Positions 47,731 through 55,099 of a stretch of 64,000 nucleotides of DNA are shown here, piece by piece (position 1 is the first letter of the stretch; each line of letters begins with the position of its first letter). Made by a program: the position numbers and the translations under genes. Source of the stretch: Candidatus Omnitrophota bacterium (GTDB taxonomy: Bacteria; Omnitrophota; Gorgyraeia; B26-G9; JBDRCZ01); assembly GCA_043821285.1 (NCBI GenBank), contig JBDRCZ010000043.1, forward strand, positions 2,903 to 66,902, written 5' to 3'. The notes under the pieces are model-generated. The model had not been told where the DNA came from, did not search any database, and saw only the letters and a program-made list of their open reading frames with translations.

Positions 47731-48711
47731 ATGAAAGTTAGCGTTATAATTCCTATATCTGAAAAAGTAAAGCACATAAAAACTTTAGACTATTTACAAC
47801 AGTTAAATTATCCGTGTAATCAGATAGAGATTATCGTTGTAAAGGGGAGTAATCCCGGCCGTCAGAGAAATGCTGCGGTAAACTATGCAAATGGTGATTT
47901 GCTTTGTTTTTTTGATGACGACCTTATTTTTGATAAAAATATTTTAAGCAAAGCGGTGCACTATTTTAAAGATTCCGAGATTTGCGGTATGGGCGGGCCG
48001 TCATTGATCGAAAAGGGCGGTAATTTTTTTCAACAAATGGTTGGGATAGTATATGCCAGCTTTTTTGGTACATGGGATGTGCGCTACCGGCATAAGGCAA
48101 TTGGCAATAAGGTTATTGCGGCAAATGAGGCAATGCTTATTTTATGTAATTTTTTAATCCAGAGAGATGTTTTTTTAAAAGAGGGAGGATTTGATCGAAG
48201 GTTTTTTGCTAATGAGGAAAATGAATTTATGAATCGCCTTATTTTAAAAGGATATAGACTATTATATAACCCTAATCTTAAAGTATATAGAAGCTATCGT
48301 AAAAATATTTGGGAATTTATGAAAGGGATTTGCCGGGATGCACGGGGGAGGGTTGATCATTACTTTGCCGTACCTAAGTTTATTCAGCTTAAGTTTTTTA
48401 TCCCATTTTTATTTGAACTGTATCTCGTAAGTTTAATTTTCATTTATCCATTCTGGTATTTTTTACCGATTTTTATTTATACCATATTGCTGTTTGTGGT
48501 AAGTTGCTGTGAGGCATTGATAAGACGTAACCTGAAAGCGTTTTTTTATCTAATCGTTCTTTTTCCGGTAATGCATATTGCTTATGGTACCGGCAGCGGA
48601 TACGGTTTATTAAAAAATATTCTGAAGGCAAAGTACCCGGTAAAAGATACACCCAAAATTACAATGCATAAAAAATTTGCAGACCCATGGCCGAAAATAA
48701 ACCATTTTTAA
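47731..48711 (+). CDS. Glycosyltransferase family 2 with C-terminal transmembrane helices
   Basis: It has VSVIIPISEK...CFFDDD and a hydrophobic C-terminus. Confidence 0.7.
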   Translation: MKVSVIIPISEKVKHIKTLDYLQQLNYPCNQIEIIVVKGSNPGRQRNAAVNYANGDLLCFFDDDLIFDKNILSKAVHYFKDSEICGMGGPSLIEKGGNFFQQMVGIVYASFFGTWDVRYRHKAIGNKVIAANEAMLILCNFLIQRDVFLKEGGFDRRFFANEENEFMNRLILKGYRLLYNPNLKVYRSYRKNIWEFMKGICRDARGRVDHYFAVPKFIQLKFFIPFLFELYLVSLIFIYPFWYFLPIFIYTILLFVVSCCEALIRRNLKAFFYLIVLFPVMHIAYGTGSGYGLLKNILKAKYPVKDTPKITMHKKFADPWPKINHF

Positions 48712-50333
48712 CTATAAAAAATATATTTCTTTTGGGAGTAGTAATTCGTCTGGCACTCATGCCTATTGCTGCGCAATTTGGCGATTGTTATAACTGGTAT
48801 GGTTTTTGTTTTGTCTTTTTAAATTCACCCTTCGAGGTTTATAATACAAATAATTATTTTTTTCCCATGACCGGAAATATTTATTCATATCCTCCTCTCT
48901 GGATATACACCATGGGATTTTTTATGCTACCGGTTTTTCTGTTAAAAATTAAAAGCGCGGCGATTGTTTTATTTTTTATTAAATTACCCCTGGTACTTTG
49001 CAGCAGTTATCTTGCCGAAATACTTTTTCGGTGCACTAACTCAAAAAAGGTGCTTATTTTGTTTTACTTAAATCCACTGGTTATATTTCTTGACAGTGTC
49101 TGGGGGGCATTTGATATTTTGCCGGCAACCGCGGTTTTTCTGGCCTATGTTTTTTTAAGAGAAAGTAAATATTCATTCAGTGCGTTTTTTTTAAGCATCG
49201 GGATTTTATATAAAATCTGGCCAGTGCTAATCCTTCCCTTAATTGTCATGAGTTTTATTAAAGAAAAAAAATATAAAGCACTTATAAAATATCTTGGCCT
49301 AATTTTAGCAGTGTCTTTGGTTTTAACCAGTCCTTATCTTTTGTCTCCAAACCGAAACTTTTTTTTCAAGGAAATATTTGCCCATGCCAGCCGTAACATA
49401 AACTGGCAACTGTCCTTATGGACGCCATTTCTTTGGTTAAAAGAAGCTAATTTATTTGATATTATCAGGTTTAACATCGGTAATATCAGCCTCCCTAATT
49501 TATTATTTTATGCTGCATTTTTAATTTTGTATGCCTTAGCTTTTAAAAGAAAATTTAATTTAACCCAACAATTTTTACTGCCGGTACTAACATTTTATAT
49601 ATTTAGCTCATGGGTTACCCCATCACACTATATTTGGATATTACCAATCCTCGCAATTTTGAGTGCCCAAAATCAAGTTTTATTGCTTTTATATATATTA
49701 CTTTCATTTTTACCAATACTGAGCGAACTTTGTTCAACCATGACATACCGTTTTACCTGGGGAACTTTTTTTTCCATACCATTGTTTAAAAGCAGTTGGG
49801 CCGGTGGAATTCTTAGTATTTTTGCCATGATCATGATTACCATATGGAGTTATATTTATTTTTATATTATTAAAACTAATAAAGATCTACAATTTGTCGG
49901 GCAAAATAGGGTAAAAATTTCTTTAAATCAAAAAATATTTGTCTTTGTCAGCATATTTTTTGCATTTATTGTCAGTAATGCTTACTGGGGTAAAATATCA
50001 TATTATAATCCAGACAATCAACTCATTGATTTATTCTGGGAACCGCATAGTAATGTTAAGGTATATAATGAGTTAGGTATATATTATACCCATCAGAACA
50101 GGACAAAAAAGGCTAGATATCTTTTTAACCAGGCTGTCCAGATAACACCGGAATATCCAGTGACATATGTTAACCTGGCAGCATTTTATGCAAAAAGTAA
50201 AAATTGGCCAAGAGCAAAATATTTCATTACACAGGCGGCCGTGCGGGATAATTCATATTTTAAGCTTTTAGATGTTATTGCATCTAAAAAACCGATAAAT
50301 TTTATAACTAAAGTGCCACATAACTATAGATGA
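48687..50333 (+). CDS. Polytopic membrane protein (GT-C-like candidate) with a C-terminal TPR-like region
   Basis: It has 12 or more predicted transmembrane segments, and the C-terminal roughly 100 aa have TPR-like periodicity (YNELGIYYTHQNRTKKARYLFNQAVQITPEY). Confidence 0.4.
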   Translation: MAENKPFLTIKNIFLLGVVIRLALMPIAAQFGDCYNWYGFCFVFLNSPFEVYNTNNYFFPMTGNIYSYPPLWIYTMGFFMLPVFLLKIKSAAIVLFFIKLPLVLCSSYLAEILFRCTNSKKVLILFYLNPLVIFLDSVWGAFDILPATAVFLAYVFLRESKYSFSAFFLSIGILYKIWPVLILPLIVMSFIKEKKYKALIKYLGLILAVSLVLTSPYLLSPNRNFFFKEIFAHASRNINWQLSLWTPFLWLKEANLFDIIRFNIGNISLPNLLFYAAFLILYALAFKRKFNLTQQFLLPVLTFYIFSSWVTPSHYIWILPILAILSAQNQVLLLLYILLSFLPILSELCSTMTYRFTWGTFFSIPLFKSSWAGGILSIFAMIMITIWSYIYFYIIKTNKDLQFVGQNRVKISLNQKIFVFVSIFFAFIVSNAYWGKISYYNPDNQLIDLFWEPHSNVKVYNELGIYYTHQNRTKKARYLFNQAVQITPEYPVTYVNLAAFYAKSKNWPRAKYFITQAAVRDNSYFKLLDVIASKKPINFITKVPHNYR

Positions 50334-53266: not shown

Positions 53267-55099
53267 ATGACTATGATTTGGGAGAGTCTACGAAATAAAA
53301 GGATTTTTATTGCAATCTTGTTTCTCAGCTTATTAATCCGCGGGTTATATCTTATTGAAATAGAAAAAAAAGATCCTGATTTTTACCAAATGCCCTCCTA
53401 TACAGATATGGCTACCTATGACCATCTTGCCTGTTCGGCACTTTCCGGGAATGGATTTAAGGTGTTTGAATATTCCCCGCTTTATATTGGTTTTCTGGTT
53501 GCAGTTTATTGGTTATTTGGACACAGTGTATTAATCGTAAAGATCATCCAATTGCTATTTATTGGTATTTTTAGTCTGGTACTTATCTGTAAAATTGCCA
53601 GGTTGTTATTTAATGAACAAACAGCAATAATTGCCTTTTTATTAGGGGCATTATATTATCCCTACATTATTTATGGCGGGGTACTTTTATCGGAAAATTT
53701 ATTGATTTTTTTCAGTTTGTTGATGCTCTATTATTTATTAAAAGCAAATGTTGAACTTAACTTAAAATACATTATTCTTAGCGGACTATCTCTGGGGGCC
53801 GCGGCAGTAACCCGGCCAAGTGTCTTAACATTTATTCCTTTTATTTTTATTACATTTTTAATAAACCACAAAAGAGGTCAGGTAATCAAACCCTTTTTAA
53901 TTTTTTGTTTTGTGGTCGTGATTACAATTTTCCCCGCTATTCTTAGCAATTATTTAGCCAGTGGTAAGCTAGTGCTGGTGCGGGCTAATGGGGGGATAAC
54001 CTTCTATCTGGGAAATAATCCGCATACTGATGGCAGCGGCTATATCACGGACCACACCCCGCATCTTTCTAAACTCGCGGAAGAGATAAAACACACATCT
54101 TTTGACGAACGCGATAAGTTTTATTATCATCAGGCCATTACATTTATTAAAAATACCCCCGGTAAATTCTCTAGGCTTTTGTGGAATAAGTTTATAATGT
54201 TCTGGTCAGCGCGGGAAATTAATAATAATATTGCCCCGGCCGTATACCGGCGTTTCAGCCGTAGTGTGCACGTTGCCTTTATCTCATTTGGCATACTTTT
54301 ACCATTTGCATTACTTGGGATAGCCCTGAATTTTAAACGGCTAAAACAACAGTTTTTATTATCTGGTTTTATTGTTAGTCAAATGGCAACTACGATTGCC
54401 TTTCATGTAGTTGACAGATTTCGCCAACACATTGTCGGCATACTTATTATTTTTGCCGGATTTTTTTTTGCTGAAGCCATAAAACTTTTCAAACTACATA
54501 AAATTGGTCTATTAAGGACATATCTCGGAATTGTCTTTATTATACTTTTAGCGCTGAATTTTACTCAGATTCGAAAAAATGTTTATCCCTTATTTCATCC
54601 GCATGGAACGTATACAGAAGAGTTGAATCGTTTGATTATTTCTGATTGCCGGCTGACAGAGCGAGAAACAGATTATTGGACATTTTTCAGCAAGTCAAAT
54701 GATAAGATTTTGAAGATATTGGAGTTGCCGCGTGATCCTACGGCATTTGCCCAGGCAGGTCTTTTTTTAGATGCAATAATCTTGCCGGAGACAACACTGA
54801 ATATTAATATTAACGGGGCAATTTTGCCATTTATTTCAGATAAGCAGCAAATAATAAACGGCAGAATAAAGATAAACTTACCGGTCTCCATGCTCCAAAA
54901 GGGCAAAAATTCAATAATCATATCTGCCAGGCCTGAGAAACATTTTTATATTTTGATTGATAATTATTTAGATTACAACCGCAGTGCCTTTTTTTCTCAG
55001 GGAAAATGGGATTTCGACAATTTAGGCAGCTGGTCATACCTCGGAGATGGCGAATACCGCATTTTTATCGAGCTCAAAAATGAAAATCACCCCCAATAA
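53267..55099 (+). CDS. GT-C family membrane glycosyltransferase (PMT_2 / ArnT-like, GT39/83-like)
   Basis: It has an N-terminal multi-TM region with a first-loop acidic motif (TDMATYDHLA) and a roughly 200-aa C-terminal soluble domain. Confidence 0.55.
   Translation: MTMIWESLRNKRIFIAILFLSLLIRGLYLIEIEKKDPDFYQMPSYTDMATYDHLACSALSGNGFKVFEYSPLYIGFLVAVYWLFGHSVLIVKIIQLLFIGIFSLVLICKIARLLFNEQTAIIAFLLGALYYPYIIYGGVLLSENLLIFFSLLMLYYLLKANVELNLKYIILSGLSLGAAAVTRPSVLTFIPFIFITFLINHKRGQVIKPFLIFCFVVVITIFPAILSNYLASGKLVLVRANGGITFYLGNNPHTDGSGYITDHTPHLSKLAEEIKHTSFDERDKFYYHQAITFIKNTPGKFSRLLWNKFIMFWSAREINNNIAPAVYRRFSRSVHVAFISFGILLPFALLGIALNFKRLKQQFLLSGFIVSQMATTIAFHVVDRFRQHIVGILIIFAGFFFAEAIKLFKLHKIGLLRTYLGIVFIILLALNFTQIRKNVYPLFHPHGTYTEELNRLIISDCRLTERETDYWTFFSKSNDKILKILELPRDPTAFAQAGLFLDAIILPETTLNININGAILPFISDKQQIINGRIKINLPVSMLQKGKNSIIISARPEKHFYILIDNYLDYNRSAFFSQGKWDFDNLGSWSYLGDGEYRIFIELKNENHPQ

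Follow-up and report, generated by a model that had tools for sequence, protein, structure and literature searches.

In those strains of Pseudomonas aeruginosa that belong to group IV, the type IV pilin is modified by the D-arabinofuranosyltransferase TfpW, which is encoded next to pilA. TfpW is a glycosyltransferase (GT) of the GT-C class with 646 amino acids, 11 transmembrane (TM) helices and a periplasmic tetratricopeptide repeat (TPR) domain; its model is ArnT-like, its donor is a polyprenyl-phosphate-linked monosaccharide, an acidic DDx motif in loop 1 is essential, and a Y-x6-P-type motif has been reported for both TfpW and EmbC. Actinobacterial protein O-mannosylation (POM) involves Ppm1, which makes the donor, PMT (GT39), which initiates the glycan on many substrates, and PimE (GT87), which extends it; in mycobacteria, protein-linked mannose is extended by a GT87 enzyme. 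Glycans can also be modified in the periplasm by three-component systems that consist of a polyprenyl-phosphate-sugar synthase, a flippase and a GT-C (GtrA/B/C, or Citrobacter ORF15/14/12 with GT136). In characterised Citrobacter O-antigen loci the modification genes lie at the 3' end, and a similar system occurs in Klebsiella loci that depend on an ABC transporter. The polysaccharide-modifying GT-Cs described so far (GtrC, GT136) have not, to our knowledge, been described with a periplasmic TPR domain. In bacteria, the membrane proteins that join a GT-C domain resembling that of the eukaryotic TMTC proteins to TPRs number in the thousands, and we know of no function assigned to them. The subject of this work is a group of four genes, here called A to D, at positions 48687-55099 of a 64-kb stretch of DNA from the metagenome-assembled genome of an uncultured Omnitrophota bacterium (contig JBDRCZ010000043.1; the whole stretch is called the window below). 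Our firm conclusion is that they make up a module for periplasmic glycosylation, with a polyprenyl-phosphate-linked sugar as donor; the acceptor of the module is tentatively sought in an exported protein, with type IV pilin as the leading candidate, an assignment whose probability we place a little short of even.

Every gene of the window lies on the + strand, and its overall GC content is about 35%. Four open reading frames (ORFs) fill the interval: A (48687-50333, 548 amino acids), B (50383-52314, 643 amino acids), C (52283-52972, 229 amino acids) and D (53267-55099, 610 amino acids). The products of A, B and D match NCBI proteins exactly. A begins before the end of a GT2 gene with three predicted C-terminal TM helices (47731-48711), and C likewise begins before B ends. 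All four of these genes overlap or nearly abut, while D follows C after a gap of 294 bp.

A donor synthase and three membrane glycosyltransferases

The product of gene C is recognized as GT2 by Pfam (3e-27), and its best relative of solved structure is the dolichol-phosphate-mannose synthase of Pyrococcus furiosus (5MLZ), which is matched with an E value of 5.8e-34 over residues 1-217, the whole catalytic domain, and in which the sequence MDADLQH aligns with the metal-binding DAD motif of C (MDADLSH). ArnC and GtrB are matched far more weakly (1e-10 to 1e-8). TM prediction gives no TM helix for C, which would be a soluble enzyme limited to the GT2 catalytic domain, and its orthologues in two related genomes (L001 and L002, described below) show 61% identity across the three. 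Judged by sequence, C is a member of the Dpm1/DPMS-type family of polyprenyl-phosphate hexose synthases, which bears out the original prediction of a Dpm1-like synthase. The name is right because the match to 5MLZ is strong, yet mannose as the sugar of C is unproven since C stays under every curated NCBIfam equivalog cut-off (AglJ, PgfS, ArnC, PpgS), its two best scores being 69.5 and 69.0 bits where 500 and 325 are required.

Gene B encodes a TMTC-like and TfpW-like protein with the GT-C fold of the STT3, PMT and ArnT type (GT-C_A). Its 11 TM helices fit both the hydropathy profile and the helices of the AlphaFold2 (AF2) model if the helix at residues 278-301 is counted as the juxtamembrane helix of external loop 4 (EL4), and Pfam detects TPRs at residues 450-630, C-terminal and on the non-cytoplasmic side. 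The family is very large, with more than 1700 scored matches, of which the 120 best all have a homologous TM domain. The DUF1736 domain by which the original prediction characterised TMTC proteins was not detected, as B has no match to Pfam TMTC_DUF1736 (PF08409) at E<0.01 and only 2 of 16 family members match it, weakly (best 6e-4); some members match PMT_2. Sequence and profile searches of the PDB with B and D returned either nothing or TPR proteins only, and a tblastn search of plasmids with B gave a single irrelevant archaeal match.

B was also compared with the published TMTC motif set M1-M7 (DD, SHKSYRP, RxD, KE(T/Q)xxT, DW, PxxP and ERxxY; PMC7801869). M2 (Y93-R94-P95), M3 (R167, D169), M4 (K215, E216, T220) and M7 (E370, R371, Y374) are retained, and the segment LLFATHPIHT is nearly identical to that of human TMTC3; M6 is altered (P357...P363), M5 (DW) is not recognisable, and M1 reads D64-G65 instead of the "strictly conserved" DD (PMC7801869). 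Within the family D64 is near-invariant, and the motif Y296-x6-P303 is invariant. A loop 1 with W-D-G or W-D-A is conserved in the subfamily of B that pairs with A (50383-52314 in the window, 10001-11764 in L001, 1829-3550 in L094), while the rest of the family and the TMTCs have D-D.

Gene D matches Pfam PMT_2 above its gathering score (38.4 against 26.1 bits), and this was the sole match in a Pfam scan that detected neither PMT (PF02366) nor MIR. Its product, named a GT39 family protein by NCBI, is a PMT_2 (GT39/GT83-like) GT-C that ends in a C-terminal domain of about 180 residues. The original prediction had placed TPRs on all three GT-Cs; Pfam finds none in D, and they are present in many, not all, of its homologues. 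The loop-1 Asp of D, D47, is near-invariant in 16 homologues, and the families of D and B are related at the profile level (hhalign probability 92%, E 7e-7).

Gene A is rarer than B, with 436 matches among 1.84 billion representatives. Taken alone it has no GT-C match in Pfam, TPRs at residues 458-511 being the only match; of 36 homologues, 20 match GT87 and 13 match PIG-M, with PIG-U and ALG3 also matched, and the family profile reaches PIG-M structures with an E value of 5.8e-26. The best Foldseek matches of its AF2 model (predicted local distance difference test score 77.6) are PIG-M, ALG6, PIG-U, ALG9, ALG3 and PimE, and the loop-1 Asp, D33, is near-invariant, being kept in at least 90% of homologues. 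Sequence profiles and the predicted fold thus make A a GT-C of the PIG-M/GT87(PimE)/ALG3 branch (GT-C_B) with a short C-terminal TPR region, neither TMTC-like nor PMT-like. Each of the three GT-Cs comes from a family of its own, and given the branch to which A is assigned they are therefore not close paralogues. Of the earlier picture of three TMTC-like or PMT-like paralogs, the GT-C assignment holds for all three, the TMTC likeness for B and the PMT_2 likeness for D, whereas A belongs elsewhere and close paralogy does not hold. A lack of the catalytic acidic loop would have spoken against the original prediction; the loop is present, because its Asp is kept in A (D33), B (D64) and D (D47), with the caveat that B is without the second acid of DD.

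The pilus cluster and its relatives

The genes 3' of D are, in order, E, F, pilT, pilB, a pilS-like kinase gene, the sigma-54 activator gene pilR, and pilC (pilT to pilC, 56544-63752); the window ends about 250 bp past pilC, where another gene seems to begin. The module had been described as immediately upstream of the pil genes, and pilT/B/S/R/C do lie downstream, but a gap of 464 bp with a terminator-like hairpin (55232-55250) follows D, and two genes that are not pil genes, E and F (55564-56530), intervene. E (55564-55926) encodes a protein of 120 amino acids in which three Cys are invariant; it also has a CP..G.Y motif and a single N-terminal TM helix. In F, two TM helices are combined with a HAMP domain and a coiled coil, and an output domain is lacking. 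The pair is conserved directly 5' of pilT in L001 (13823-14769) and in L002 (9621-10564), with 50-52% identity for F among the three genomes. PilB (57604-59280) has an MshEN-type cyclic-di-GMP-binding N-terminal domain, which suggests that pilus extension may be under cyclic-di-GMP control. Scans of the intergenic gaps of the region for Rfam families and tRNAs gave no match. Neither E nor F is demonstrably a pilin. E was considered as a candidate and rejected as a demonstrated pilin, since it lacks a prepilin motif and matched nothing in Pfam or the PDB; a likeness to ComGC that had been noted by eye has no statistical support (hhalign probability only 4%).

Two relatives, whose orthologues are 45-61% identical to the genes of the window, have preserved the junction between the module and the pil cluster. 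In L001 (GCA_004196255), a MarR gene and a Wzx-type glycan locus are followed by AsnB, B, GT9, C, E, F, pilT, a gene for a second pilT-family ATPase, pilB, pilS, pilR and pilC. In L002 the order is GT9, GT4, AsnB, GT9, C, D, E, F, pilT, a second pilT-family ATPase gene, pilB, pilS and pilR, in which the contig ends; the D orthologue, upstream of the same pil cluster, is 56% identical to that of the window. The GT-C content thus differs, with B in L001, D in L002 and A, B and D in the window, and C is kept alongside in all three.

More distant members of the B family are found beside pilin genes themselves. In the Omnitrophota locus L003, two pilB genes, a response regulator gene and pilC precede a gene in which a Dpm1-like GT2 is fused to a methyltransferase, two TMTC-like genes, four canonical pilin genes and pilMNOPQ; in L089, a pilin gene stands between a TMTC-like gene and the same kind of fusion, which is followed by a second TMTC-like gene and YfhO. 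The fusion protein, a Dpm1-like GT2 joined to an S-adenosylmethionine (SAM)-dependent methyltransferase (419 amino acids; 6941-8200 in L003, 8766-10025 in L089), is 74% identical between the two loci and adjoins TMTC-like genes and a pilin gene in both. Upstream of the pilin/GT-C cluster of L089 lies a nucleotide-sugar block in which a UDP-glucose/GDP-mannose dehydrogenase gene (1460-4204) is split by an intein with a LAGLIDADG endonuclease domain. In L007 (5065-17991), a lone pilin gene just past recA is followed by six consecutive membrane/TPR genes, of which two are of the B family (TMTC-like), two PMT_2, one YfhO-like and one a TPR protein whose GT-C fold is not shown; this is the most striking pilin/GT-C array among the loci seen. 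In L056, a B homologue is followed by pilB/gspE, pilC/gspF and four (pseudo)pilin genes. A search with the TM domain of B yielded 80 metagenome loci (792 kb in total, 9.9 kb on average), and in about 13 of these a GT2 gene like C adjoins a B-family gene, six of them being short and TM-less as C is. An A homologue directly followed by a B homologue was found again in L094.

The acceptor of the glycan

In the pathway that we propose, C would work on the cytoplasmic side of the membrane, where it would charge polyprenyl phosphate with a hexose taken from a nucleotide sugar, a step well supported by homology, and the lipid-linked sugar would be flipped to the periplasmic face, where the GT-Cs would transfer it residue by residue. 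The acceptor would be Ser/Thr of an exported protein, type IV pilin foremost. B, and possibly D, would initiate the glycan, the periplasmic TPR domain of B holding the protein substrate, and the GT87/PIG-M-like A would extend it. The donor synthase and the periplasmic GT-C enzymology on which the original prediction relied are thus supported by homology, whereas pilin as the target is something that we infer. In its favour are the pil junction kept in L001 and L002 and the B-family genes that flank pilin genes in L003, L089 and L007; the similar gene set of L088, which lies away from any pil gene, speaks against it.

A number of further observations weigh against pilin as the acceptor. Co-occurrence with type IV pilus genes, which the original prediction had named as a check, is seen in L001 and L002 and is missing from most B-family loci: any pilus or type II secretion system (T2SS) gene is present in only about 5 of the 80 metagenome loci (L007, L017, L021, L056, L058), which by a rough estimate amounts to a modest, few-fold excess at best. 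L088, an Omnitrophota locus flanked by ion transporters, carries a B homologue together with AsnB, GT9, a membrane-anchored GT2 and radical SAM genes, and the 10 kb to each side are free of pil genes. L092 has a B homologue and a PMT_2 gene clustered with genes for GT4, methyltransferase and radical SAM proteins, with no pil genes in the 10 kb upstream and the contig ending at the B homologue; nor were pilus genes seen in L085-L087 and L093. The candidate pilin gene of the original prediction was not recovered, since searches of the window with a motif of the G-F-T-L-x-E type, with real Omnitrophota pilins and with a hidden Markov model (HMM) of the pilin N-terminus were all empty. Co-transcription of D with E, F and pilT is unlikely because of the 464-bp gap and its hairpin, and A-D appear to be a transcription unit separate from the pil genes. 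The second Asp of the DD motif is lost both in B and in its two closest orthologues (WDG or WDA). Its own orthologues aside, B is about 30% identical to the pilin-linked members of its family, and a neighbour-joining tree of 99 B-family TM domains is star-like; the pilin-linked members come out as the non-orthologous neighbours closest to B, but the difference is negligible (0.68-0.70 against 0.70 or more), and function can therefore not be transferred from these members to B.

The remaining points against pilin concern the surroundings of the module. As the original prediction had it, A-D stand at the end of a glycan locus, on the 3' side of an ABC-transporter-dependent block (27125-43149) that encodes Wzm, a Wzt that has a Wzt_C domain, enzymes of GT1 and GT2, several methyltransferases and a fusion of GT2, radical SAM and SPASM domains. 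It is followed, in order, by an MNT/HepT pair, an AsnB-type amidotransferase gene (44274-46163), a radical SAM gene (46395-47519) and the GT2 gene that A overlaps. AsnB adjoins the module also in L001, L002 and L088, and in L001 and L002 the module genes are interleaved with GT9 and AsnB genes. The GC content at third codon positions (GC3) is low (0.25-0.34) in the glycan locus and likewise in A and B, while that of AsnB, C and D is like that of core genes. In addition, the solved relatives of A act mostly on glycolipids or lipid-linked glycans, and among the ORFs at 44-56 kb there is no flippase of the GtrA, SMR or MATE type. The sole remote flippase candidates are an MsbA-like ABC exporter (23286-25211) and an LPG_synthase_TM (MprF-type) protein (25292-26269), encoded shortly before the MarR gene with which the glycan locus begins.

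Several of these features are what would be expected if the module instead modified a polymerised polysaccharide in the periplasm, as a Gtr-like three-component system in which C makes the donor and A, B and D add side-branch or capping sugars, before ligation, to the polymer exported by Wzm/Wzt, or else to lipid A or the core of lipopolysaccharide (LPS). In that case the proximity of the pil genes would be conserved synteny without function. We regard this as somewhat less than evenly probable, and it is nearly as likely as modification of pilin because of the position in the glycan locus, the separate transcription unit, L088, the roughly 75 of 80 loci that are free of pilus genes, and the glycolipid relatives of A, which resembles PimE, PIG-M and the ALG enzymes. 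The 3' position is that of the modification genes in the Citrobacter O-antigen loci, and the interleaving with GT9 and AsnB in relatives, the B homologues within the glycan clusters of L088 and L092, the PMT_2/ArnT-like nature of D, and the low GC3 that A and B have in common with the variable glycan locus all point in the same direction. The GT-C content varies among relatives, moreover, as serotype-type variation would have it. This explanation, however, has to contend with the missing GtrA-, SMR- or MATE-type flippase beside the module, with a periplasmic TPR domain that fits recognition of a protein, as in TfpW, TMTC and OGT, and with the pilin-flanking arrangements of L003, L007 and L089, for which it hardly accounts. 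The pil junction is, in addition, kept even though the glycan locus itself has been replaced (Wzx-type in L001, Wzm/Wzt in the window). A third explanation, in which the acceptors are general or mixed (a broad protein O-glycosylation as in actinobacterial POM, or unrelated acceptors for each GT-C, for example proteins for B, lipid A or core for D and a glycolipid for A) and pilin is at most one substrate, can claim the three GT-C families, the 294-bp gap that sets D apart from the tightly packed GT2, A, B and C, the several B-family paralogues that genomes hold in varied contexts and the many substrates of actinobacterial PMT, but it is improbable in view of the conserved adjacency of A and B and the retention of C beside whichever GT-C is present, which suggest one pathway.

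Some observations on the upstream region stand apart from the question of the acceptor. The GT2, radical SAM and SPASM fusion is an unusual protein of 638 amino acids, encoded together with the B12-binding-domain protein that follows it at 33713-36537; the fusion, the B12-binding protein, the many methyltransferases and the Wzt_C domain of Wzt suggest a heavily methylated or otherwise modified polymer. The MNT/HepT pair, a toxin-antitoxin system of a nucleotidyltransferase and an RNase (43250-44102), parts the block of GT and methyltransferase genes from that running from AsnB to D. Further upstream, a tmRNA gene and small ORFs are followed by a complete type I restriction-modification system, HsdR/HsdM/HsdS (3303-3730 and 7089-12877), possibly as an island whose insertion site was ssrA.

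Comparison with known systems

The proposed pathway to pilin mirrors both Ppm1-PMT-PimE and TfpW. When B is compared with the published description of TfpW, the two share their architecture (643 and 646 amino acids, respectively), and the Y296-x6-P303 of the B family matches the Y-x6-P part of the TfpW/EmbC motif, whereas loop 1 has D-G in B and D-D in TfpW. Like tfpW, other B-family genes directly adjoin pilin genes (L003, L007, L089), while B in the window does not. The donor pathways differ as well, being Dpm1-like (hexose) in the window and DPPR/DprE (D-arabinofuranose) for TfpW, and three GT-Cs of different families stand against one multifunctional TfpW enzyme. The original prediction had considered the module analogous to the pilin glycosylation enzymes, TfpW included, in logic but not in ancestry; for TfpW the latter part is doubtful, because that enzyme, too, is a GT-C in which 11 TM helices go together with a periplasmic TPR domain and a DDx motif in loop 1.

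The roles of the actinobacterial system are matched one by one, with C as the Dpm1-like synthase, B and D as GT-C_A proteins related to PMT, and A as the GT87-like GT-C_B; the window differs in that its host belongs to a diderm candidate phylum, that there is no MIR or WW domain, that the genes are clustered, and that B has TPRs as TMTC does. Eukaryotic TMTC1-4 resemble B in their 11 TM helices, their lumenal (in B, periplasmic) TPRs and their GT-C_A fold, and have in common with it motifs M2 (YRP), M3 (RxD), M4 (KExxT) and M7 (ERxxY), together with LLFA(V/T)HPIHT. They are unlike B in M1 (D-D against D-G) and in M5 (DW), which is not recognisable in B, and B has neither a significant DUF1736 match nor enough identity for a direct HMMER match. 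The three-component systems share with the window the combination of a polyprenyl-phosphate-sugar synthase and GT-C at the 3' end of a polysaccharide locus; they have a dedicated flippase, which was not found among the ORFs at 44-56 kb of the window, C is without the C-terminal TM helices of the GtrB type, and two of the window's GT-Cs carry TPRs. Literature searches brought up no paper in which pilin glycosylation is tied to GT-Cs of the TMTC-like or PMT_2 kind or to Omnitrophota.

A broader proposal, which we consider doubtful, is that the bacterial TMTC-like TPR GT-Cs constitute a large, unrecognised family of periplasmic protein O-glycosyltransferases that includes TfpW as a diverged member, and that Omnitrophota assemble an O-linked hexose glycan stepwise on type IV pilin by means of a synthase like Dpm1, an initiator like TMTC and an extender like GT87. 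If true, the module would be the counterpart, in diderm bacteria, of eukaryotic TMTC and actinobacterial PMT/PimE O-mannosylation, and would give bacterial TMTC homologues their first function. Glycosylation of pilins or other exported proteins by the family would tie its sole characterised case, TfpW, to a very large group of proteins, connect bacterial and animal O-mannosylation enzymes in evolution, and bear on how Omnitrophota tune their pili. Omnitrophota are ultra-small and host-dependent, and their pili are thought to serve attachment; in Pseudomonas, pilus glycosylation guards against pilus-specific phages. If a polysaccharide is decorated instead, the module would be an ordinary member of the three-component systems, with its TPR-bearing GT-Cs as the sole oddity. 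In either case, the module follows the known logic of TfpW, of PMT/PimE and of Gtr and is not a new kind of system, its interest lying in the testable function that it offers for the large and uncharacterised family of bacterial TMTC-like proteins.

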